Positions 4,194-59,790 of a stretch of 64,000 bases of DNA are shown piece after piece (the first letter of the stretch is position 1; each line of letters starts with the position of its first letter). The stretch is from assembly GCA_965235115.1 (NCBI GenBank), contig OZ249436.1:620001-684000 (forward strand), read 5' to 3'. The stretch comes from Laetmonice hystrix (taxonomy: Eukaryota). The notes below the pieces were generated by a model. That model was not told the origin of the DNA, did no database searches, and worked only from the letters and a program-made list of their open reading frames with translations. Both the position numbers and the translations under genes were made by a program.

Positions 4194-4622
4194 TTAGTAG
4201 CCCTTCCTTTTGATCATGGCGAAGTGGGTCATCTCCATACGGCCTTGCCGCCGGTCCCCTCGCTCCAGGGTGCCTGTAATGCTGTACCCCATTTGAAAGT
4301 CTGTGTTTGATACATTTGTCGTCAAACTGAGTTTAAAATCTGGGTCAGGCCCGCCATGTTTGAACCTTCCCGTAATGCACATCGTGCCGTTTCCGTTGTC
4401 TGTCATTTTGCCCTTGGTTGAAACCTTCTTGGTGCCCATGACCTCGATGACCTTGCACTTCTTGCGACTCCACCAAGGTGTCTTGAGAATCCAGTACGAG
4501 AGCAGTGCGGGGCGTGCCCAGCCCTCGTACGGGAATAGAAGCACCTTGCTCGGGTACCCGTCATATTGCAAGATCTTCCTGCAGCATTTGCCGCGGTTTT
4601 CATAGTAAAACAACTGCACCAT
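4194..4622 (-). CDS. Uncharacterised 142-aa protein (MVQLFYYENRGKCCRKILQY...THFAMIKRKGY), probably beta-rich
   Basis: Non-repetitive ORF with protein-like composition and a strong Kozak context (AAAGATGG). The same frame stays open upstream to a TTTCAG acceptor at 4812-4813, giving a possible terminal exon 4811-4194 (phase 0). No family recognised. Confidence 0.65.
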   Translation of the reverse strand: MVQLFYYENRGKCCRKILQYDGYPSKVLLFPYEGWARPALLSYWILKTPWWSRKKCKVIEVMGTKKVSTKGKMTDNGNGTMCITGRFKHGGPDPDFKLSLTTNVSNTDFQMGYSITGTLERGDRRQGRMEMTHFAMIKRKGY

Positions 4623-4918
4623 CTTTACTTCTTCTTGGCTGTCTTCTAATTTGGCTGCAAATGTTGCCTTTTCTTTGCCTAAACGTTTCAGTCGACTTTT
4701 CTCGCTGTGACAGGTGGTTCCTAGCGACAGCTGAGCTGGTGTCAGGATGTACGGAGACGGGTCGTCCAGTACTGATCGGCCGAGGATTAGAACATTACTG
4801 ACTAAAGATGTCTGAAACTCCTTTAGTGTTCACGAATTCAGCCAAGCTCATTCCGAGTTTATCTATGTACTCGCTTCTATGCATTGGCGTGAGGTCTGCA
4901 CTTACAGGTATGAACGTT

Positions 4919-41731: not shown

Positions 41732-43317
41732 GTCCCCTTAATACTAGAATGATAGCATATCTTTTTGTACAAGCATGTGTACGTATTTGAGGTATTATCA
41801 TTACAGGTACCCCACCCCGTACCCATCCGTTATAAGATCTCAATGGATGTGCACCGATCACAGACGTATACAAAATCACAGGCCTGGAACAGTTATCACG
41901 GATTACTCTGCTATCATATCATATTTATCTCATGGACCATAATTATCGATACTTACATTAGAGGATATTCCCGACTATTGGAGAATATAAATTCCTTGGT
42001 ACCTCAGACTGAAGCGAACACTTATATCACATGTACAAAAGCCAGGTCCAATGACCAGATCGTGAGGTATGGGACTGTTTTTAATCCATCAATATTGTAA
42101 AGATAGCTGCAAGAATTATTGTTGTCTGTGCATACCATCTATAATTAAATATCATTAATTGACAGAATATAATAAAAATCTCTCAAGTGTCTCACGTGGA
42201 AAGGTGTTCCACATCTGAAATCACAAACTCAAAGACGTGTCACAAGCTGGTATATTTAATCGTTATATATACAAGGTCGATCATGTTTTAACCCGACACA
42301 GTATCTCACCACGGCCATCAACTGTATACTTTCACAAACATTCCCTCCTCCAGTTCTCATCTTAGGAAACTTGACGTGTGTAGTTCACTGTTATAGGCTA
42401 CAGTTCCGTATGACAACCTCCAACTAATATTTTGTTAAAACAAACTTGACAAAATTTATGGTCAAGTTGTTTCCTGTCCTTATTGCTGGCAGTATTCCCC
42501 TTCAAACCTATAAACGTCAAATAAATGTTTTTTTTCTAACGTATCTAGCCCCAAAGGAAGAGACCTCGGTATTGCGTGACTTCAGTCTATCGGTAGCAAT
42601 ACTCGAACGTTAAAATGTGATTGTGATGTTCAGCGAATGTGTTCATGCTTACATTGTGGACATTGTAAAATGTGATTGCGATGTTCAGCGAATGTGTTCA
42701 TGCTTACATTGTGGACATTGCTGAGAATCATTTATTGACAAACGCTTTGATGTCTGAAACAGTTATCACTTTTTATCTTCTTTCAAAGTTCTACCAAATT
42801 CTGAAGTTATACCCGCCAAGATTCCCCAATCTCCCATGTCACATTAAACAATTCAAACTACAAGATTATTGTGCCAATATAGAATGGGTGAGTCATTGGT
42901 CAATAGACAATAGTTAACCCTTTGTTCTACACTGTCCACCCATCCTCAACTGGCACAAGTTGAAGTTAGAGATGCCATCGTAGGTTTTCCACAAGTATTA
43001 ACTGTCTATAAGCTGACCAATCTTCACGATGACATACACTGTACCGACTAACCCCGCCTGCACTTTAACTCATGTCAGCAAACTTTTCAAACATCATTCT
43101 TTCATCCATGAACACATACACCTAAACACTGTTAACCGTGCACGACTAAAAAGGAGTCAAGTTTGGACACCCTGGATACCATACGTGTCCACAGACACTG
43201 TGGTGTCAAGTTTGGACACCCTGGATACCATACGTGTCCACGGACACTGTGGTGTCAAATCCTCTGGAGCGACACCTGGTGTAAACAAGTGCTGCCACCT
43301 GCTGGATTCTATCGTCC

Positions 43318-46300
43318 TCACGAAGGTGTCGGGGCGGCCAGACTGGCCGGGTTACTGAGGAAGGCCAGGTGACCTTTGGGACACTTGTTGGCATAGTGAC
43401 CCTTCTCACCACACTGGAACAGGAAACAACACATTAATCATTTAGTCTGTCACAGAAACTGCCGCGGTTTCTCACCACACAGGAACAGGAAACAACACAT
43501 TAATCATTTAGTCTGTCACAGAAACTGTCTGGGTTTCTCACCACACTGGAACAGGAAACAACACATTAATCACTTAGTCTGTCACAGAATGTGTGTCTCG
43601 GTTTCTCACCACACTGGAACAGGAAACAACACATTAATCATTTAGTCTGTCACAGAAACTGTCTCCGTTCTTAACCTGTATTTACACTGTTACATTCAAA
43701 GGCAGAACAAGGTTGGGACTGAGGACTTACCTTGAAACATGTCACTTCATGTAAAGGTCGCCTGTTAGAATCAGGCTGGAAGGTGCCGCGGTGATCAGAC
43801 ATTGGATGACCTCGAGGGTTAGGACCGAACCCATGGTGACCATGCGTGGAATCTGCTGAGCCAAGAGAACCAATCTGTAAATACAAACACAATCATATTT
43901 TATATCATCACACACTAACAACAGCTCCACTTGGTGTCTTCATTGGTCAAACTTAACAACAAACATGACCATATTTTATATCATCACACACTAACAACAG
44001 CTCCACTTGGTGTCTTCATTGGTCAAACTTAACAACAAACATGACCATATTTTATATCATCACACACTAACAACAGCTCCAGTTGGTGTCTTCATTGGTC
44101 AAACTTAACAACAAACACGATCATATTTTATATCATCACACACTAACAACAGCTCCAGTTGGTGTCTTCATTGGTCAAACTTAACAACAAACATGACCAT
44201 ATTTTATATCATCACACACTAACAACAGCTCCAGTTGGTGTCTTCATTGGTCAAACTTAACAACAAACATGATCATATTTTATATCATCACACACTAACA
44301 ACAGCTCCAGTTGGTGTCTTCATTGGTCAAACTTAACAACAAACATGACCATATTTTATATCATCACACACTAACAACAGCTCCAGTGTGTGTCTTCATT
44401 GGTCAAACTTAACAACAAACATTTAATTAATTTAGGTGACCCATTGGAAGTTGTTGAGGTTGTATCCCCTATTGTTTGAGGTATACTAGTATCCTCTCTC
44501 CGACCCATCACAAGGGTCTATGTCCATGTCCCCACGTAACCAACACTAGCTTCCCGTAACTGACCTTTTGACCTCCAATCTGGTCCAGTTTAGTGCCAGG
44601 TGGAAGTCTTGGACAGCTAGCGGCTTTGTGACCTTGTTCATTACAATAATGACACTGGATGTTGGCTTTCCTTGCCTGTGCCACAGGGTCAGGGGCCGGA
44701 AGGTCAAACTTGGGACTGCAACAGGCAAAAACATTATTTCTCATACAAAGTTATGTGATATGTACGTGTTACCCCATATCTGAAAACCTTCATTTACAAA
44801 TTACACACAAACTGGGCGGTACAGGCACAAGGTTAATCACAAAGTCTAAAAGATGGTTTCCAAATTATATTCTTCTATTTATAATATATTATGCATATAC
44901 AACAACAACTTATGGAATTAAATCATTAATAAAACATCTGATCAAACAAACCCTCAATAAACTCATACTCACTGAACAAATTTGCACTGAGGGCCCTTTG
45001 TACAAAGACCACAGAGATAGTTCTGGCAAAGTACACGACGCACATGACGGTTCTTACAATTGGGACCTAAACAGAAGAGCAACATTAGAACTGGTGTCTT
45101 TCATGGGGCTGGGACGATACATTCTGTTCACGATATGATATATATCTCAATACTTAATCCACGATATGATACGATGTCATATGATGTGATACCAGTAATT
45201 AAGCAATGAGCAATGGTGCAAGACATAGAGAACATAGCCACAATGTGAGTACGACACCACGGGCACAGCCAACCTCTGGATCCTAGCATCTGTTAATATC
45301 CATGACTTACCATGCCGACAAAATCCTCGATCATACCATGGACAGTCTTTAATTTTCTTCTCTGGATCAATGTGTAGGAATGGGCACTCCTTGTTACTAC
45401 ACTGACCTAAAAATCATCAAGCAATCCATCAAACAAGTCAACAACTTTACTGTCATTAACACTTTCTGTGCCACTTCAAGTGCACAGACTAGTCTTATAT
45501 CGCTGACCTTTACAAAGCAAACTGCACTTCTGAAAATTAACTTAATTAAGTCATTTTTTAAATCATCTTTAGGACACTTTAACATTACACTTACCAAATT
45601 TTGAGTAGAAGTAACACTCCGGCATCTTGCTCATGTCATACTCATGAAGAAACTCGCAGTCGTCACCTTTCTTACACAGGCCACGTAACCAATGTTTACA
45701 AACAATTGTACGGTCTCCCTTTACATGGCGGAATGGACATGCTGCACCCTTGGAACACATGCCACTTAGGTAAAACGTGCAAATGGCTGATCCAGACTCT
45801 GGAAATACACAGAGATATATGTGAAGTGCCCTCACCAGATGTTTATCAAGGGGAGCACTTTCATTTTCTTACCAAAACTGGCAAAACATGGTAAACATGG
45901 TATTTTGTCTGTATGTTTGTCTGATTGTGGTAATGTTCACACCTGTGTGTGTGTTGGTGTATGTATATGTAAAATAAAATTCCAATATGTATAAAATATA
46001 ACCTATTTATAAAAGCACAATTGTTTTAGAACCTATGCAAAAACAGACGACATCACAACAAGTTATTTTTAAACTTACTGGTGTCAAAAGCTCAGTAGAA
46101 GGTAAATCCTGAATGATCAAGTTGTCTTACTCTATGTGTACCTGTATGTATTATGTATTAAAATTATCTATCTAAATTTCTTAATGTAAGAATATCAAAT
46201 TGCAAAAGTAGCTATGTACAATTGTCAGGGGATTATATTTACATGATGGTCGTCTATGTAGCCGGGGGGGGGGGGGGCTATATACACAACCGTCATGTAG

Positions 46301-47368: not shown

Positions 47369-47897
47369 CTTGCTTATTCTATACAGTCAAACTATATGGA
47401 GAACTTATAAGAAAAATTATTTCAATAGCCGCCTGTCGCGATCCTCAAGTTTTCTCAAAGCGCCGCACGCTATACCGGATATGGTGGTTCAGCTGTACTA
47501 GGATAATTAACCAACAAAATATTCTAACATTTCGGTTCCGATCGCTCGTCGTTTGCAATAATGGCACAAAGAAAGAACAGTAATGAGGCATAAACAACAT
47601 TTATTTCTTTTGGAATGGTGGAGATGGTAAAGTAAATGTACTTCACGTCTCAAGAAAATTGAGAAAATAAAATGAAAGACTTTTAAAGGTCTCTATCGGC
47701 GGCGACTGTTCTGCCATCTACCGGAGAAACACACATCTTGTCAGCCCCTCCGCTGCCCCGCACAGCGTCGTTTGGAGCGGGAAGTGTGAAGGATGGAGGG
47801 GGCAGAGTGGGGCGAGGGTCCGCCCTCTCCAGTCAAAGTGTCAAAATGAGAACACTCACTTCCTTGTTGTGGGCGTGATGGCTTGTCCGGCAGCACC
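47369..47897. promoter_or_regulatory. Probable bidirectional promoter and 5' UTRs between CPSF4 and the arrestin-domain gene
   Basis: Divergent ATGs only 529 bp apart, in a locally CpG-enriched, repeat-free stretch. Confidence 0.6.
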
Positions 47898-50800
47898 ATG
47901 AGTGAGATATTTCTGAGGACAGACAAAGTGGAATATGAGAGTGGACACACAATTTATGGGTAATCTTTGGAGTAGATCTATCTTAGTAGACTATCTATCG
48001 GGTGGATAAAAAAAAACGCCCCGAACTTTAAACTTCCATGTTTCAAAAAGTATAGATTGTAATTAAATCAAATTTTTCTTACTATCACTTCAAGATGTTG
48101 TCTCTTAGTTGTTAATGTTACAAGTCAATAGCTTGGATAATATTTCCGTAGCGCTAAAAACAGAAATCATTGTACAAAAGCGCAATGCCGGGCTAAAGCG
48201 GGTGGTAGTCGCACCAGAGTCCCTGGCCTCACACTAGAGTAGGTGGTCAATCGTTCCCCCGTTTTCACTTCATACTGCTCTCAGACTCTTTTTACATGCG
48301 CCAATGCACTTCCTGATCTCTGATAGGGAATTATCTTCCTATTATTGGGAAATAAGCAACGTTCTGAACGTGTTGCTAAACGTGATAATGATACGATTTC
48401 CCTTAAACTTCTGGTTACAGTCATATCGTCCTAATGTTGCTGATTCTCTGTAGGGTTTGGCAAATTAAACATCTGGGTTTCTCTAGAAGTACTAGGAATA
48501 GCACATAATTTATTATATCTAGTGGTTCACAACATTATACATGTTGTAAAACAAGCAAAAACTAAATATTGAAAACTTTTTTACCCAAGGTACAATGCAG
48601 TGCATCAAACAGGTGTCAAATTGGACACCTGGCAGCTGCATGATATTTGACCTAATTCCGGCATTGTGTTTTTAGACACTGATTTTTGTTTTTAGCGCGA
48701 TGGGATTAATATCAAAGCTATTGAGCGAAAACTTTAACATACAACAGATAATATTATGAAGTTATATTAAGAGAAATTTTATTGAATTATAATGCAAGAT
48801 TACTGAAATATTAAAGTTTAAAGTTCGGGGCGTTTTTTTTTATCCACCCGATACTATCTAGCCAAGGCCAAGCCAAGGCCATAATAATAGCCAGGCAGGC
48901 CGCTTAGCCATAACTGCATAAGGCATAGTCATAGACAGAGAGTAATAGACTACTACTACACTAGAAGTACTACTACTAGTACTAGGCCTATAATTAGAGG
49001 GGTCTAGACTCTACTTCGTCTAGTGACTAGTGTAGTAAAACTAAACTAAGTCTAAAGTCTATAAACTGTGACTGTCAGTCTATGTGACTCATTATTTGCA
49101 ACCTGTCAGGCTTTTACTACTATACTAGTTATATCCTAGACTAGTATATGTACTAGTAGACCTCTATTAGGCTATTGCCAATATTGGGACTGGCAGTGGT
49201 TATTTTGGTCTCGATCGAAATCGGCCGCCGCTCGAGCGGGCATAGCACGCGGGCAGCTCTTCCGGCGGAGCTGCCCGCAGGACTAAACTATCACTAACCC
49301 TAGGCCTAACCTTAACCTTAACCCTACTAACACTTTAACCCTAGGCCTAACACCTAGGCCCAGCTGATTTCAACCAGGGGCGACCACCTGGTCGAGTATG
49401 GCCACCCGTAACGGTAACTTACACACGGCCAATTTCGATATACACCGTTGGTCTCGATCGAAATCGGCCGCCCGTAATAACCTACGGACGAGCGGGCGTA
49501 GCACGCGGGCAGCTCTGCCGGCAGAGCCGCCCGCGGGACTAAACTACCACTAACCCTAGGCTTAACCTTTAGGGCCAAAACACACTGCGCGTGCACGCAC
49601 ATGCACACGCGTGCCAATAATTCTCAATGCAATTTCAATATGACCACACACACTAGGCGTGCGTGTCACCTAGCATCGCGTGGCGTCCAAACAATCCCCA
49701 CGCAATTGTTTGCACGCCACGCAACCATTTTGAGACTAAATTACCACTAGCATGAGGCATCGGCTAGGGCCTAGCCCTAGCCTAGGCTAGGGCCAGGCCT
49801 ATCCCTATCCCTAATTAGTCAAACTAATTTACTTGTTTACTTATTTTGCCAGAATGCTGGCAAAATAACCATTGCGTTACGGTACCTATTTGTGGTTATT
49901 TTTAATCCTAAAATATTAATATTGGTTTTCAGTGTTGTATATCTGAAAGTGGACACGCCAACTGGTGGACAGGGTATAGAGTGTGGGATCCTAGGCCAGG
50001 AACAGTGTAAGTATAGAGTGTGGGATCGTGGGCCAGGAACAGTGTAAGTATGGAGTGTGGGATCGTGGGCCAGGAACAGTGTAAGTATAGAGTGTGGGAT
50101 CCTGGGCCAGGAACAATGTAAGTATAGAGTGTGGGATCGTGGGCCAGGAACAGTGTAAGTATAGAGTGTGGGATCGTGGGCCAGGAACAGTGTAAGTATA
50201 GAGTGTGGGATCGTGGGCCAGGAACAGTGTAAGTATAGAGTGTGGGATCGTGGGCCAGGAACAGTGTAAGTATAGAGTGCGGGATCCTGGGCCAGGAACA
50301 GTGTAAGTATAGAGTGTGGGATCCTGGGCCAGGAACAGTGTAAGTATAGAGTGTGGGATCCTGGGCCAGGAACAGTGTAAGTATAGAGTGTGGGATCCTG
50401 GGCCAGGAACAGTGTAAGTATAGAGTGTGGGATCCTGGGCCAGGAACAGTGTAAGCATAGAGTGTGGGATCGTGGGCCAGGAACAGTGTAAGTATAGAGT
50501 GTGGGACCCTGGGCCAGGAACAGTGTAAGTATAGAGTGTGGGACCCTGGGCCAGGAACAGTGTAAGTATAGAGTGTGGGATCCTGGGCCAGGAACAGTGT
50601 AAGTATAGAGTGTGGGATCCTGGGCCAGGAACAGTGTAAGTATAGAGTGTGGGATCCTGGGCCAGGAAGAGTGTAAGTATAGAGTGTGGGATCCTGGGCC
50701 AGGAACAGTGTAAGTATAGAGTGCGGGATCCTGGGCCAGGAACAGTGTAAGTATAGAGTGTGGGATCCTGGGCCAGGAACAGTGTAAGTATAGAGTGTGG

Positions 50801-53800
50801 GATCCTGGGCCGGGAACAGTGTAAGTATAGAGTGTGGGACCCCGGGCCAGGAACAGTGTAAGTATAGAGTGTGGGATCCTGGGCCAGGAACAGTGTAAGT
50901 ATAGAGTGTGGGATCCTGGGCCAGGAACAGTGTAAGTATAGAGTGTGGGATCCTGGGCCAGGAACAGTGTAAGTATAGAGTGTGGGATCCTGGGCCAGGA
51001 ACAGTGTAAGTATAGAGTGTGGGATCCTGGGCCAGGAACAGTGTAAGTATAGAGTGTGGGATCCTGGGCCAGGAACAGTGTAAGTATAGAGTGTGGGATC
51101 GTGGGCCAGGAACAGTGTAAGTATAGAGTGTGGGATCCTGGGCCAGGAACAGTGTAAGTATAGAGTGTGGGATCGTGGGCCAGGAACAGTGTAAGTATAG
51201 AGTGTGGGATCGTGGGCCAGGAACAGTGTAAGTATAGAGTGTGGGATCCTGGGCCAGGAACAGTGTAAGTATAGAGTGTGGGATCCTGGGCCAGGAACAG
51301 TGTAAGTATAGAGAGTGGGATCCTGGGCCAGGAACAGTGTAAGTATAGAGTGTGGGATCGTGGGCCAGGAACAGTGTAAGTATAGAGTGTGGGATCGTGG
51401 GCCAGAAACAGTGTAAGTATAGAGTGTGGGATCGTGGGCCAGGAACAGTGTAAGTATAGAGTGTGGGATCCTGGGCCAGGAACAGTGTAAGTATAGAGTG
51501 TGGGATCGTGGGCCAGGAACAGTGTAAGTATAGAGTGCGGGATCCTGGGCCAGGAATAGTGTAAGTCAGATATTGTCATAGATTAAATTACAATTTGTAA
51601 AACAATTGGAGAAAAAGGCTATTGTTTATCTAACATAATTGAACAATGACTGCATTATGTGTTTCGTGTTGTTCTTGTGATTAGGGGTTTGCTTTCTCAC
51701 TACTGTTCTTGTTAGCCGCCAGGTGGCAGCATGCTATGGCCACTAGGGCCTTATTCACGTAACATTATGGTTGTATGGTTGCAGATAATTATCACAATAT
51801 CAAAGGATGCCAGTGTGGTCAGCCACCACGAGAGATTGTGCTCAGGAGAGAGAGAAAACATATTGACAACCATCACATCTTGTACCAAACTACAGGTTGG
51901 AATTTTGTTCAGTTGAAAACCTGAGGAGTCAGGCATAATATAATTTCAGGCTAACAAGGAGTGGGACTGGGTGGGGTTAACATTGGCCTGTAATGCTGAA
52001 GTGTTGACAAGTTTAGTTTTGATGTATTGGGTACAGATCTAGTCTGTGTGGGTAAGATATTGTACAAGAAAAATGAGTAAACTGGTAATGTACCTGGAGG
52101 TCTATTGAAACGGGTAGAGCAACAAGTATATCAAATGGCTTCATTACTGTTGCAGGACCCTTAGCTCTCGGAGAGTACGTGATCCCATTCAAGATGATGC
52201 TCCCAGATTCAGCTCCAGGCCAGTACTTCTGCAGTACTCATTACAATATACTTAAGGCAGTCATCTAGCTATAGCCTTTTGGCATATCGGCCCGATACCC
52301 TGAGTTTTAGCTCTGATACGTGACCAAAACGGCCAATACACTGTTCTTTAAGGCCGATACACAACGAAAATCACTGAAGCCCCTCCTGCACTCTCCCTGT
52401 GCTGGCCTCACGTAGCACTGGGCTGTACGCCCACGCTGAGATTTCCTTCTAGCTAGAACACTGGAAGCGGTTGAACTTGAAGCTACCTAACTCATAAAGA
52501 AGGCCGAGTGGTGTTGAGGTTGTTAAAGGTTTTTATTTAATCATGTGAACCTACATGTTTCCACTCAGTTATAGGAACAGTTGTGATTAGGGAATCTACA
52601 GAAGGCCGAGTGGTGTTGAGGTTGTTAAAGGTTTTTATTTAATCATGTGAACCTACATGCTTCCACTCAGTTATAGGAACAGTTGTGATTAGGGAATCTA
52701 CAGAAGGCCGAGTGGTGTTGAGGTTGTTAAAGGTTTTTATTTAATCATGTGAACCTACATGCTTCCACTCAGTTATAGGAACAGTTGTGATTAGGGAATC
52801 TACAGAAGGCCGAGTGGTGTTGAGGTTGTTAAAGGTTTTTATTTAATCATGTGAACCTACATGCTTCCACTCAGTTATAGGAACAGTTGTGATTAGGGAA
52901 TCTACAGAAGGCTGAGTGGCGTTGAGGTTGTTAAAGGTGAACCTACATGTTTCCACTTAGTTATAGGAACAGTTGTGATTAGGGAATCTATTCTAAACCT
53001 AACTGTGTAGTAGAACGTGGTGGAAACTTGTAAACCTAATGCTGGGTTTCTACTGTACGAAATTCGGTTGATCGGTGACATTCCGGAAATCAGGACTGTC
53101 GGTCACGGACAAGTTTCCTTCTGGAGTGGGCGTGCACGCTGCACGATTTCCGGCGGCAAAACATGGCGGGAATCAGGAAAGCTGGCCACACCCCCGCCTC
53201 CGACGCCATTTTCAGCTACTATCATGTGACACACTCCCTCTTTCCAATTGGCTGGCGCACAATCTGAGATTTGTACCTAATGATTCCACATTCCCACTGC
53301 CCGACTACACGTAATTCTGCAGGTCTACTCCTCAGAAATTCTGCAGGTCTACTCAGAAATTCGGCCAGAGTCTGACATGCCAGACTTTCCCAAATTTTTT
53401 CATTCCGGATTTCCTGGCAATCAATGGCCTGGTTTTGTGTGCACACTGTACAAAATTCGGGAGATCGGTTAGGCCGACTTGGAAAATCAGTGGGCAGTGG
53501 GACCACGGCTTTAACTGGTAGAATATAGTGGAAACTTGTAAACCTAACTCAGTGGTAGAATACAGTGGAAACTTGTAAACCTAACTCAGTGGTAGAATAC
53601 AGTGGAAACTTGTAAACCTAACTCAGTGGTAGAATACAGTGGAAACTTGTAAACCTAACTCAGTGGTAGAATATAGTGGAAACTTGTAAACCTAACTCAG
53701 TGGTAGAATACAGTGGAAACTTGTAAACCTAACTCAGTGGTAGAATACAGTGGAAACTTGTAAACCTAACTCAGTGGTAGAATACAGTGGAAACTTGTAA

Positions 53801-56800
53801 ACCTAATTCAGTGGTAGAATACAGTGGAAACTTGTAAACCTAACTCAGTGGTAGAATACAGTGGAAACTTGTAAACCTAACTCAGTGGTAGAATACAGTG
53901 GAAACTTGTAAACCTAATTCAGTGGTAGAATACAGTGGAAACTTGTAAACCTAACTCAGTGGTAGAATATAGTGGAAACTTGTAAACGAAACTCAGCTGG
54001 TAGAATGTAGTGGAAACTTGTAAACGAAACTCAGCTGGTAGAATGTAGTGGAAACTTGTAAACGAAACTCAGCTGGTAGAATGTAGTGGAAACTTGTAAA
54101 CGAAACTCAGCTGGTAGAATGCAATGGAAACTTGTAAACCTAACTCAGTGGTAGAATACAGTGGAAACTTGTAAACCTAACTCAGCTGGTAGAATACAGT
54201 GGAAACTTGTAAACCTAACTCAGTGGTAGAATACAGTGGAAACTTGTAAACGAAACTCAGCTGGTAGAATACAGTGGAAACTTGTAAACCTAATTCAGTG
54301 GTAGAATACAGTGGAAACTTGTAAACCTAACTCAGTGGTAGAATATAGTGGAAACTTGTAAACGAAACTCAGCTGGTAGAATGTAGTGGAAACTTGTAAA
54401 CGAAACTCAGCTGGTAGAATGTAGTGGAAACTTGTAAACGAAACTCAGCTGGTAGAATGCAATGGAAACATGCCCACGGCCCAGTATGGAGAACACAAAG
54501 TTTATGGTGACAAACTAAGATTCTGTATTTTTTATCTACAGAAAAAGTAATAAAATTTCTTGTGTTTTCATCGATAGGCACAATATGTTGGTGCAGCAGA
54601 GAAGGTCCAAAGTGGGATGCTGCTATCAGTTACAGAGTGTGGGCCAGAGTGATCGGAGCAGAAGAAATGAAGGTCACTAAGTCCACAATATTTAAAACAG
54701 TAAACTAAACAGTCCATTCATGATAAAAATGAGTATATCCAAAAGATACACTAAATTATAAAGTGAGGGTTTGGATTATCAGTTAAGGACAAGTGCTAGT
54801 GTGAGGCCAAAAATTTGTTTGAGACAGATTTTTTTTAAATTTTGCAGATAAACAGAGTGTGTTGTCCTCTTTCAAAATTCAGCAAAAAAATGATACCTCA
54901 CCGGGTTACTTTTTTTGTTAAGAGCGTTTGAAATTGATATGTTCGTCATGTTAATTACTAATTACTGTTTAGAATTTTTTTTTTTTTTTTTTTACCATTT
55001 CTATTTGTCATAACGGTCTCCAAGTTATAGAAGTGGTAAAAAAAAAAAAAAAAGTTTGATTTTGAACATTTTCACTTTTTGCTCATTTACGCCAGTGAAA
55101 ATGTTCAAAGTCAAAATTTTTTTTTCTCTCTTTTTTTTTTTTTTTTTTTTTAAACCACTTCTATTTGTCATAACACCGTTCTGACAAAAAAAAAGTAAAA
55201 AAAAAAAATAAAATAAAAAAAAATTGCAAACTCTATTCATTAACATGAAGAAAATACCAACTTCAAACGCTCCTAACAAAAAAACTAAGCCGGTGAGGTA
55301 TCATTTTTTTGCTGAATTTTGAAAGAGGACAACATACTCTGTTTATCTGCAAAATTTAAAAAAAATCTGTCTCAAACAAATTTTTGGCCTCACACTAGCA
55401 CTTGTCCTTAATTACTTCATGATATTTTGATTGTTGTTTCACTGTTTGTATTTAAGTTTCTTTTAAAATGGATGGTGTTTTACTTGTCATGGACTGAGAC
55501 TACTGCAGGAAATTCCCTCCCCCACTCACCTCGTAAGGGATTACTTTTTCTCTATTTGTTTCAGGTGTCACAGGGAGTTGTCATTTCCCCAAGGGGATCG
55601 GATCACTTTCACAATAGTTCTACCCCACCTGTCCATACAGTGCAGGTTGTCAGTATCAGCAAATTCCTCAAAGTTGTCAAGATGAACTTCACTATAGGGG
55701 GAAGGTAGGTTGGATCCTCCGTGACCATTCATAATCTGAATTATTGCAAACCCTGTTGTTATTGTTTTTATAACCGTTGTACTGTCATGTAAGTTTTCAT
55801 TCGCTCTAACTGTCATCATTTGATAGTGACAATGAATCGCCAATGTCTGAAAACAACTAAATAAAAGCTGGTTATGTTTGTGTCAGTTTGGACAAGAGTG
55901 TATATAGGATTGGAGATACGGTCAGGCTGAGTCTTCAAACCAAGAGTCTCAGCAGCAACAGAATCACGAGGATCGTAATGGAGGTATAGTATAAAGACAT
56001 ATAGATGACATCAATTTGGTTTACTTTCACATTTTAGATTTATTTATGAAACTTCTGTGTATGGCCAACGCTTATGAAAATAAGGACTGCATTTCATAAA
56101 TAGTCACTCGTGCACAACGATCTCAAGGGCCCAATTTCTTAAAGTGAGCCAGTGAGACTGCTCAGCTTGAGTGGATTATATTGAGAGCAAACAGTGAGTG
56201 AGGTTGGGTTTGCTGGTTTCAGTTGTTGCGCCACATCAAGTTGATGTTAGCCAGTCAGGATGGGGCTGCAGCCTCCGCAGACACAGAGTCTGCCCTTGAA
56301 CCAGAGGATGGACCTGTTGTAGAGTGGAGTGCTTCCATACAAAACACCAAAGACATTCAACTAAACATGTAAGTCAAACCACAGGTGAGGTTCGGGTTGG
56401 GTTTACATCAAAACTGTTAGGATAAGTTTACTTCAGTACAGTCACTACAGACATACACGGGAAGTATTTTCCAACATCCTGATAATAACCCGTACCCTTT
56501 GTTTTGACAAGTAATAATTGAGTGATTATTGTGAAGGCATTGACCAACTGTCTGCATGGGGAGACAGTCATGATTAACATTGGGTGTAACTTTTGTAGGG
56601 GAGTGCAAACTTTATATATTCCCCTGAACAAGGACATGAATGGGGTTACTATTCCACCTTCTACTCAAGGAAGATATGTTCAGGTAAATAGGTCTAGGGC
56701 ATGGCTGTGTAAGCAGTGAAAGATTGTATTAATGGCATGGCTAAGGAAACCCAAGGACATGGATTTTCAGGTTACATGGATTTATCAAGAGCTTGGCAGT

Positions 56801-58391
56801 ACATGGCATGCTTTGGATGAGGTTACAAATATTTAAGATAAGGGCTTGAGGGGTTAGGTAGAGGTCGGTGAAACATTAAACCAGGGGTCGATTTCCATGC
56901 AAGTCCGTGAGTCCAGGACACCCACAAATCATGAAAGGCTATCATTTTTCTACCTTACAAGTCCGTTAGTCCAGGACACCCACAAATCATGAAAGGCTAT
57001 CATTTTTCTACCTTACAAGTCCGTGAGTCCAGGACACAGACACTCACAAATCATGAAAGGCTATCATTTTTCTACCTTACAAGTCCGTTAGTCCAGGACA
57101 CCCACAAATCATGAAAGGCTATCAATTTTCTACCTTACAAGTCCGTGAGTTCAGGACACCCACAAATCATGAAAGGCTATCAATTTTCTACCTTACAAGT
57201 CCGTGAGTCCAGGACACCCACAAATCATGAAAGGCTATCAATTTTCTACCTTACAAGTCCTGCTGACTCCGGCTCGAAATCTACCCCTGTAAAAGTAGTA
57301 CGGTCAGCAAGATACACTTTTACAAGGGTGCTGTGTCTGTGCTAGGTATTAGATCGTATTTTCTGACTCCTGGGTAGTGGCTTTGTCTGTTTGCTTAAAG
57401 TTTGGTTTTATATATTTTATGGACACCCCATCATTAAGTGATTTCAGAAAATTAATTATAAAAAATTCATGTTTCATTCCCAAAAAATCGTTTTGGTATT
57501 ATAAAATGAAATCTTTCATCCCTTCAAAATCGTTTTGTTCATAGAAAATAGCACAGATGCTGAAGGATTGTATAACGAGAAGTTGATTGTTGTTTTAGTG
57601 CAGTCACATAATTCGTGTCACAGTTCATCTAGAGGCCGGTGACGAGGTCACATTGATGGTCCCAATCCCACACGTTAAACCCGCGATAACCAAGGTCAGC
57701 TGGAAATGGCCTAACAACTCTTGATCATGGTTTCAGTATTTTATGTAAATCATGATATCAATCCATAGGATGCATGCGATAGTTTTCATTTCTGGATCTA
57801 TGTTGAGCATTTGACATTAATAAGTTTGGATGTATTATGGGAATCATGACATTGTCTGATGATTCTGCAGCGTGAGACTGATGCGGAGACACAACCCTGG
57901 ACTTCCCACTGTACACGGATTATCAGTAACAGTGAGATCTACTGGAATCAACCCCGAGTTACTGACTCAGGTCAGATAATTCTACTCTACTAATTGTAAA
58001 TATGGGGTAACCTTATTCTTCTCAACCCAATTCTTGATAAATTGTATAAAGTGACTACATGTACTTTCAGGTGCAAAGTTTCAGAGTTGTACGACTTGCC
58101 TTGTTGATGTCATTTAACACTTAGTAACCCTTCACTTTACCAGTACTAAAGCCCTAATATTTTCACTCTTTTTTTCAAAAGTAGCTTTTGTATGTTCACA
58201 TGTTCACCAGTTCAGGTTTGTACCAATTGTGTGCTTTTACATCAAGGTTCAGGGCCCCTAAAACTTGGCTTTAAAAAAGTGAGAAAAAAATATATCCAAA
58301 TTATTTCATAACTCGTCACATTTCTGATTATTTTTTTTCGTTTTCAGACTGGGAGATATACCAGACGTTTGCATCCCTTGGGCCACAGTAG
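47898..58391 (+). CDS. Arrestin-domain-containing protein (divergent alpha-arrestin/ARRDC-like), 12 coding exons, about 370 aa
   Basis: Exons 47898-47959, 49933-50006, 51785-51895, 52156-52218 (GC donor), 54578-54672, 55565-55704, 55887-55983, 56223-56368, 56599-56683, 57599-57694, 57871-57970 and 58348-58391. Phases are all consistent and the total is 1113 nt. Arrestin-N-like motifs: TDKVEYESGHTIYGVVYLKV, LALGEYVIPFKMMLPDSAP, ISYRVWARV. Arrestin-C-like motifs: LDKSVYRIGDTVRL, LYIP..IPPST..VQCSHIIRVTV..LMVPI. The last exon is uncertain. Confidence 0.85.
47998..48851. mobile_element. Tc1/mariner-type MITE (854 bp, TA TSD) in arrestin intron 1
   Basis: About 38-bp TIR TCGGGTGGATAAAAAAAAACGCCCCGAACTTTAAACTT with its reverse complement at the right end, plus longer imperfect subterminal inverted similarity. 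Flanked by TA at 47996-47997 and 48852-48853. Confidence 0.85.
49207..49570. repeat. Two diverged copies of a GGTCTCGATCGAAATCGGCCGCC...CTAACCCTAGG element (probable TE remnant)
   Basis: Direct similarity between about 49207-49320 and about 49450-49570, with CTAACC-type subrepeats. Confidence 0.55.
49974..51566 (+). repeat. 37-bp minisatellite, 43 copies, each containing the exon-2 3' end and the GTAAGT donor
   Basis: TATAGAGTGTGGGATCCTGGGCCAGGAACAGTGTAAG. First donor at 50007, last at 51561 (a difference of 42 x 37). Confidence 0.95.
52499..52990. repeat. 102-bp tandem repeat, about 5 copies
   Basis: AGGCCGAGTGGTGTTGAGG... at 52501, 52603 and onward. Confidence 0.9.
53040..53511. mobile_element. 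Possible PIF/Harbinger-like MITE inserted in the 37-bp satellite
   Basis: A unique GC-richer block splits a satellite unit. Imperfect inverted ends TGCTGGGTTTCTACTG / CAGTGGGACCACGGCT with TAA-like flanks. Confidence 0.4.
53515..54468. repeat. 37/38-bp minisatellite, about 25 copies
   Basis: GTGGTAGAATACAGTGGAAACTTGTAAACCTAACTCA repeated. Confidence 0.95.
54787..55407. mobile_element. Kolobok-like MITE (621 bp, TTAA TSD, GG...CC ends, long TIRs) in arrestin intron 5
   Basis: About 120-bp near-perfect TIRs starting GGACAAGTGCTAGTGTGAGGCC, with TTAA at 54783-54786 and 55408-55411. Purine (RR) termini fit Kolobok rather than piggyBac. Confidence 0.85.
56882..57289. mobile_element. MITE with CAG-type TIR whose interior is a 58-bp minisatellite (about 6 copies)
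   Basis: CAGGGGTCGATTTC / GAAATCTACCCCTG (1 mismatch), flanks TAAAC / TAAAA, internal period 58 (56900, 56958, ...). Confidence 0.75.
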
Positions 58392-59790
58392 GTGTGATGA
58401 GGACGACAGCCACCAAGTTACGTTTGCATCCCTTGGGCCACAGTAAGTGTGACGAGGACGACAACCACCAAGTTACGTTTGCATCCCTTGGGCCACAGTA
58501 AGTGTGACGAGGACAACAACCACCAAGTTACGTTTGTATCCCTTGGGCCACAGTAAGTGTGATGAGGACGACAACCACCAAGTTACGTTTGCATCCCTTG
58601 GGCCACAGTAAGTGTGACGAGGACAACAACCACCAAGTTACGTTTGTATCCCTTGGGCCACAGTAAGTGTGATGAGGACAACAACCACTAAGTTACGTTT
58701 GTATCCCTTGGGCCACAGTAAGTGTGACAGGGACAACAACCACCAAGTTACGTTTGTATCCCTTGGGCCACAGTAAGTGTGATGAGGACGACAACCACCA
58801 AGTTACGTTTGTATCCCTTGGGCCACAGTAAGTGTGACGAGGATGACAACCACCAAGTTACGTTTGCATCCCTTGGGCCACAGTAAGTGTGACGAGGACG
58901 ACAACCACCAAGTTACGTTTGCATCCCTTGGGCCACAGTAAGTGTGATGAGGACGACAACCACCAAGTTACGTTTGTATCCCTTGGGCCACAGTAAGTGT
59001 GATGAGGACTACAACCACCAAGTTACGTTTGCATCCCTTGGGCCACAGTAAGTGTGATGAGGACGACAACCACCAAGTTACGTTTGCATCCCTTGGGCCA
59101 CAGTAAGTGTGACGAGGATGACAACCACCAAGTTACGTTTGCATCCCTTGGGCCACAGTAAGTGTGATGAGGACAACCACCAAGTTACGTTTGTATCCCT
59201 TGGGCCACAGTAAGTGTGACGAGGATGACAACCACCAAGTTACGTTTGCATCCCTTGGGCCACAGTAAGTGTGACGAGGACGACAACCACCAAGTTACGT
59301 TTGCATCCCTTGGGCCACAGTAAGTGTGATGAGGACGACAACCACCAAGTTACGTTTGCATCCCTTGGGCCACAGTAAGTGTGATGAGGACGACAACCAC
59401 CAAGTTACGTTTGCATCCCTTGGGCCACAGTAAGTGTGATGAGGACGACAACCACCAAGTTACGTTTGCATCCCTTGGGCCACAGTAAGTGTGATGAGGA
59501 CGACAACCACCAAGTTACGTTTGTATCCCTTGGGCCACAGTAAGTGTGATGAGGACAACAACCACCAAGTTACGTTTGTATCCCTTGGGCCACAGTAAGT
59601 GTGACGAGGACAACAACCACCAAGTTACGTTTGTATCCCTTGGGCCACAGTAAGTGTGACGAGGACAACAACCACCAAGTTACGTTTGTATCCCTTGGGC
59701 CACAGTAAGTGTGACGAGGACAACAACCACCAAGTTACGTTTGTATCCCTTGGGCCACAGTAAGAGTGATGAGGACAACAACCACCAAGT
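58365..59790 (+). repeat. 55-bp minisatellite, about 26 copies, first unit overlapping the end of arrestin exon 12
   Basis: ACGTTTGCATCCCTTGGGCCACAGTAAGTGTGATGAGGACGACAACCACCAAGTT at 58365, 58420 and onward. Confidence 0.95.

Follow-up and report, generated by a model that had tools for sequence, protein, structure and literature searches.

Minisatellite-like arrays that run across an exon-intron boundary have been described in human genes and in amphioxus. In human F7, the first unit of a 37-bp variable number tandem repeat (VNTR) in intron 7 spans the donor site and only the most upstream site was used (Borensztajn et al. 2006, PMC1557585); inactivation of this first donor activated the next one, minigenes with 1 to 12 monomers left donor choice unchanged, and the pseudo-sites competed only when they carried a perfect consensus (PMC1557585). 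The junction minisatellites of human IFI6 (6-16), CBS intron 13, LMNB2 and PDGF were cited as further cases, in which 10 to 26 donors are repeated past the authentic one and only the first one to three are used (PMC1557585). A 25-bp VNTR in human ABCA7 intron 18 includes the exon 18 donor and has as many as about 427 units (De Roeck et al. 2018, PMC5954066); retention of one unit was reported at about 2%, independently of length, and led to a frameshift, a premature stop and nonsense-mediated decay (NMD), while expression and exon 19 skipping varied with VNTR length (PMC5954066). The amphioxus 'mirages' (in Adh3 and the globins BflGb6 and BflGb9) are minisatellite-like tandem duplications of exon-intron boundaries for which splicing was normal by reverse transcription PCR (PMC3087553). 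Here, we describe a 37-bp array across the exon 2/intron 2 boundary of an arrestin-like gene of Laetmonice hystrix, located in a 64,000-nt stretch of DNA that was analysed as a whole (the window; 620001-684000 on the forward strand of the 73.8-Mb contig OZ249436.1, assembly GCA_965235115.1). The array is an ordinary case of this known repeat type, and is likely to be a splice-junction minisatellite that arose as a neutral by-product of minisatellite turnover, with its first donor (donor 1) being the one mainly used.

The array was delimited by Tandem Repeats Finder as 43.1 head-to-tail copies of a 37-bp unit, with 97% matches and 0% indels, and its units had a mean identity of 98.1% to their consensus. 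Unit alignment and a motif count bore out what had been noticed in a first-pass annotation of this DNA, namely that the unit consists of the final 32 nt of exon 2 (window positions 49975-50006) plus GTAAG, and that this motif is present in 43/43 units, spaced exactly 37 nt apart between 50007 and 51561 (GTAAGT in 42/43, and GTAAGC in copy 13). The splice signal was accordingly found repeated in units other than the terminal one, which is itself predicted to span the exon-intron boundary on the basis of the canonical acceptor of exon 2, donor 1, the reading frame and collinearity with a protein profile. Donor contexts among the 43 copies were AGT/GTAAGTAT in 40, and AAT/GTAAGTAT, AGT/GTAAGCAT and AGT/GTAAGTCA in one each. 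Fifteen distinct unit variants followed one another in order along the array, and private or rare changes marked the edge copies 1 and 43; the single private change of copy 1, at -14, lies within a leucine codon and keeps the leucine. A genome search with the unit returned at least 18 matches, all inside the array, which was locally born and has no dispersed-element origin.

When spliced at donor 1 to the acceptor at 51785, both correctly placed by the first-pass annotation, exon 2 keeps the frame of exon 3, and with exon 1 added the prediction was free of stops through exon 5. For all other donors (42/42), translation was predicted to terminate at codon 59. The annotation had ascribed these stops to read-through into a TAA in copy 2, which holds for donors 3-43, where the TAA lies inside the second donor; donor 2, however, cuts before the copy-2 TAA, and its stop would arise where exon 3 begins, from the shifted frame. 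Skipping of exon 3 also yielded a stop. No selection is needed to explain the stops after pseudo-donors: TAA is part of every GTAAG, and a unit length of 37 nt takes the array through the three frames in turn. That the donors are 'live', and that only the first gives protein, as the annotation had put it, are predictions from the letters of the DNA. A search of sequencing runs with 51567-58364 listed none from RNA, a result that says nothing for or against expression.

The resemblance is closest to F7, which shares the 37-bp unit length, a first copy lying over the exon/intron boundary, identical donors in a row and two G-triplets in each unit, and by analogy with which the first donor is expected to be the authentic one here. 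The sequences are unrelated, however, and the F7 array has 5-9 copies relative to 43; its unit comprises 4 nt of exon and 33 nt of intron relative to 32 nt and 5 nt, and its donor is weak (TGG/gtgggt), whereas the intronic part of the present donor is a perfect consensus. As in ABCA7, the array contains the donor, and use of the second unit would introduce an early stop, but the ABCA7 unit is intronic from the GT onwards while the 37-bp unit is mostly exonic (32 nt). Donor use in F7 and length effects in ABCA7 were measured, whereas at this locus donor use is predicted. Donors repeated past the authentic one are also shared with IFI6, CBS, LMNB2 and PDGF, the unit lengths of which differ from 37 bp. 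The amphioxus mirages are likewise donor- or acceptor-side boundary duplications in an invertebrate, with concerted evolution and diverged edge copies, although in a different phylum and, for the globins, with 3-6 copies. A narrow literature query returned nothing on annelid subtelomeric intron minisatellites, which does not prove that mirages of annelids have gone unpublished.

The anatomy of the array points to how it formed. A 37-bp stretch that by chance covered the exon 2 terminus together with its donor was duplicated with a 2-nt GT overlap (the ends of the array overlap by the same 2 nt), and the copies then multiplied and became homogenised through the usual turnover of minisatellites. 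The surrounding chromosome-end region gives rise to such arrays every 1-2 kb. Because the last copy runs on into unique intron sequence, intron 2 (now 1778 nt) would have had a length of about 224 nt before the expansion; exon 2 and the first donor would have been left intact as the intron grew. Tolerance of the array is probably explained by exon definition, or an upstream-first rule as in human F7, under which the spliceosome would join the acceptor of exon 2 to the nearest good donor downstream of it. Since exon definition favours a 74-nt exon relative to alternatives as long as 1.6 kb, we infer that donor 1 is used. Most of the mRNA would then be normal; the few transcripts that escape to the second or a later donor would carry the stop at codon 59 and would probably be cleared by NMD. 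RNA structure was considered as a reason for the choice of donor 1 and rejected, since donor 1 is locally unpaired with a probability (0.10) within the range of the other donors (0.03-0.35).

Two points weigh against a clean upstream choice. Engineered duplications of strong donors reportedly lead to intron-proximal choice, which rises beyond a spacing of about 30 nt and comes close to 100% from 45 nt upwards (PMC3413131), and the 37-nt spacing of the present array lies within this transition from upstream to proximal use. In addition, compared to the last copy, copies 1-42 had their match to U1 extended as far as +8 by the duplication, and 40 donors pair perfectly with U1 from +1 to +8, so that the leak is possibly larger than in F7.

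Repeat density in the surrounding DNA is high. In the window, 46 arrays (unit of at least 10 bp, at least three copies) covered 38% of the sequence. Among 20 sampled 10-kb stretches of one chromosome (C1), array coverage was 0.09, 0, 0.88, 0.72, 0.39 and 0.28 (mean 0.39) in those at 0.1-3 Mb, compared to 0-0.23 (mean 0.07) in the 14 stretches at 5-63 Mb, an enrichment at the chromosome end that rests on a single arm. With each array collapsed to one unit, the chance that a given donor core sits in a founding unit was about 0.049; as the arrestin-like gene and a neighbouring CPSF4-like gene together have about 30 splice sites, approximately 1.5 straddled sites are expected. Two certain sites and one possible site were observed (the probability being about 0.43 for two or more and about 0.18 for three or more), namely the exon 2 donor, a 4-copy acceptor array in the CPSF4-like gene and possibly a 55-bp array at 58365, although this random-birth null is crude, ignoring selection against arrays in coding exons and using an approximate number of splice sites. 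The count covered these two genes, in the annotated part of the window beyond position 43000. Donor hexamers were not enriched in array units (GTRAGT in 8/101 units relative to 5.5 in shuffles, with 82/500 shuffles reaching 8). Nor was the donor core better conserved than the rest of the 37-bp unit, with 1/6 variable columns in the core and 11/31 elsewhere (p=0.64), and no sign of selection was seen in this test, the power of which is low (12 variable columns).

These results bear directly on the proposal in the first-pass annotation that the array acts as a copy-number rheostat for expression through NMD or U1 loading, which found no support at the locus: the donor core showed no sign of selection, placement was as expected from random birth, and the stops are automatic. 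In both human cases measured, moreover, pseudo-donor use was independent of copy number (F7 and ABCA7). An effect of the array on expression, with longer alleles giving more pseudo-donor use or more skipping of exons 2 or 3, and hence stops and NMD, whether incidental or selected as a dial, is nevertheless conceivable, since all alternatives tested (donors 2-43 and exon 3 skipping) yielded a stop, 42/43 donors are intact with the U1 match of copies 1-42 extended, and in ABCA7, longer VNTRs are reported to go along with reduced expression and with more frequent skipping of the following exon (PMC5954066). We consider it unlikely, given that F7 minigenes were indifferent to copy number, that neither pseudo-donor use nor the NMD response in ABCA7 depended on it, and that the region makes arrays at random. 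The claim that array length is a heritable dial on the amount of productive mRNA draws on the 42 spare donors and exon 3 skipping all leading to stops, on a U1 pairing better than that of F7 and on the 37-nt spacing in the switch zone; it appears quite improbable. If it held, the many chromosome-end arrays would constitute a natural panel for comparing upstream-first and proximal-site rules outside mammals.

Loss of the gene, complete or under way, in which a divergent paralogue of arrestin would be unexpressed or crippled by the array through proximal-donor choice and the array would have grown unconstrained, would fit a divergent protein for which the searches made found no orthologue, several weak donors including a GC donor, and a second array at the 3' end, as well as the proximal-site rule itself. 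It is improbable nonetheless, in view of the open frame that can be built across nine exons with canonical acceptors, the leucine preserved by the private change of copy 1, and the comparable acceptor array borne by the essential CPSF4-like neighbour. A collapsed or inflated repeat in the assembly has only a very slim chance of explaining the array. Near-identical tandem units are hard to assemble, and among the contigs listed for three DNA runs (short reads from genomic DNA of one sample, probably the assembly's own, compared over window positions 47700-50060, where they gave no splice junction) none spanned the array, of which this stretch included the first 87 bases; the 15 ordered unit variants, however, argue against such an artefact, as does the summed depth at the start of the array (1224, 865 and 3228 in the three runs, compared to 30, 16 and 33 in a nearby unique bin), which is not a measure of copy number. 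A neutral junction minisatellite in a gene that presumably is expressed from donor 1 remains the reading that we favour.

As for its use, the locus offers a clean substrate of 43 near-identical strong donors, all but one of them out of frame. It bears on an open debate, in that the first donor wins in natural arrays and the intron-proximal one in engineered duplicates. The first-pass annotation rightly suggested that selection among identical donors is put to a natural test here, but such a test has already been published for the same architecture (F7 intron 7, PMC1557585). Arrays of this type also call for caution in annotation, as they produce spurious donor calls and, on the opposite strand, false long open reading frames (ORFs). 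On the minus strand (window positions 49837-51582), all three frames were open across the array, with ORFs of 524-581 aa, because the 37-bp unit has no stop on that strand; these were rejected as genes and are likely false gene calls.

The gene itself is probably an intact, divergent arrestin-like gene. Its arrestin character was assessed with a profile built from 56 arrestin-domain proteins, relatives of an intronless arrestin paralogue in the same genome (120 listed of 168). The donor-1 model scored 10.7 bits against this profile and was collinear with it over exons 1-4, while 200 shuffles reached a maximum of 2.4 (125 of them scored by HMMER). Among the six stop-free in-frame GT/GC sites in 49933-51566, donor 1 was the top-scoring one; the five others were tried as donor and gave lower profile scores (at most 7.5). 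Several results weigh against the arrestin assignment, which is weak: the second half of the gene (the Arrestin_C side) aligned to the profile at background score, no arrestin Pfam match was obtained among nine single-exon pieces, the locus was absent from the results of a PF00339 genome search, and direct phmmer comparison to the ORFs of the paralogue gave a best E of only 0.15. Orthologue searches with the exon 5 piece gave seven candidates, none at E<=10, and those with the exon 3 piece gave no candidate. The sole phmmer match of exon 5 was an unrelated TPR-repeat protein and was rejected as an orthologue; exon 5 has no second copy in the genome. Among the matches listed, the best named relatives of the intronless paralogue were annelid proteins.

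The predicted exons and the arrays of the gene are collected in Table 1. The exon 4 GC donor at 52219 (CAG/GCCAGT) is required to hold the frame into exon 5, and 4/12 of the downstream exon combinations tried kept an open frame through exon 9.

Table 1. Predicted exons, donors and tandem arrays of the arrestin-like gene (window positions)
Feature	Position	Strand	Remarks
Exon 1, start codon to phase-2 donor	47898..47959	+	fixes the frame of exon 2; not named in the first-pass annotation
Exon 2, 74 nt	49933..50006	+	final 32-33 nt form the first repeat unit
Minisatellite, 37 bp x 43, across exon 2/intron 2 boundary	49974..51566	+	
Donor 1	50007..50012	+	sole consensus donor that keeps the frame
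Pseudo-donors 2-43	50044..51566	+	predicted stop at codon 59 for each
Last donor and unique part of intron 2	51561..51784	+	putative pre-expansion intron, 224 nt
Exon 3, 111 nt	51785..51895	+	acceptor 51785
Exon 4	52156..52218	+	predicted GC donor
Exon 5, end of arrestin-N-like half	54578..54672	+	
Exon 6	55565..55704	+	3' end at 55645 or 55704
Exon 7	56223..56368	+	5' end at 56223, 56255 or 56259
Exon 8	56599..56683	+	
Exon 9	57599..57694	+	
Second array, 55 bp x 26	58365..59790	+	begins 17 nt into probable exon 10 (acceptor 58348)

In the second array, 24 copies carried ACA/GTAAGT, the first copy GTAGGT and the last GTAAGA, and the donor-like GTA(A/G)G of each unit doubles as a stop codon. 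This array either repeats a second donor or runs over the stop codon, and no downstream exon was identified. Intron 1 contained a high-copy element of about 893 bp with terminal inverted repeats, resembling a miniature inverted-repeat transposable element (window positions 47974-48866); as a contig in all three DNA runs joined across the site of this element, the other haplotype lacks it. Two copies of a dispersed element of about 230 bp, with high depth in the DNA runs, were present at 49210-49560 in the same intron.

Elsewhere in the window, a Pfam search with 125 ORF pieces gave the CPSF4-like zinc fingers as the only confident naming; a 211-aa open frame at 4197-4829 (minus strand) had a protein-like composition and no Pfam match at E<=0.05. 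The last acceptor of the CPSF4-like gene (43403-43669, minus strand) is straddled by an array of four 66-68-bp units, each comprising a polypyrimidine tract, the acceptor and 11 exon bases. The AG was kept in 3/4 units, the fourth having TG, and only the last copy (43413) runs into the zinc-knuckle exon; this array is an acceptor-side mirage in an essential gene. Two further arrays lie against exon edges of the same gene, one of 49 bp x 2 just past its stop codon (43156-43258) and one of 76 bp x 7 (43883-44422) that ends a few bases before an acceptor.

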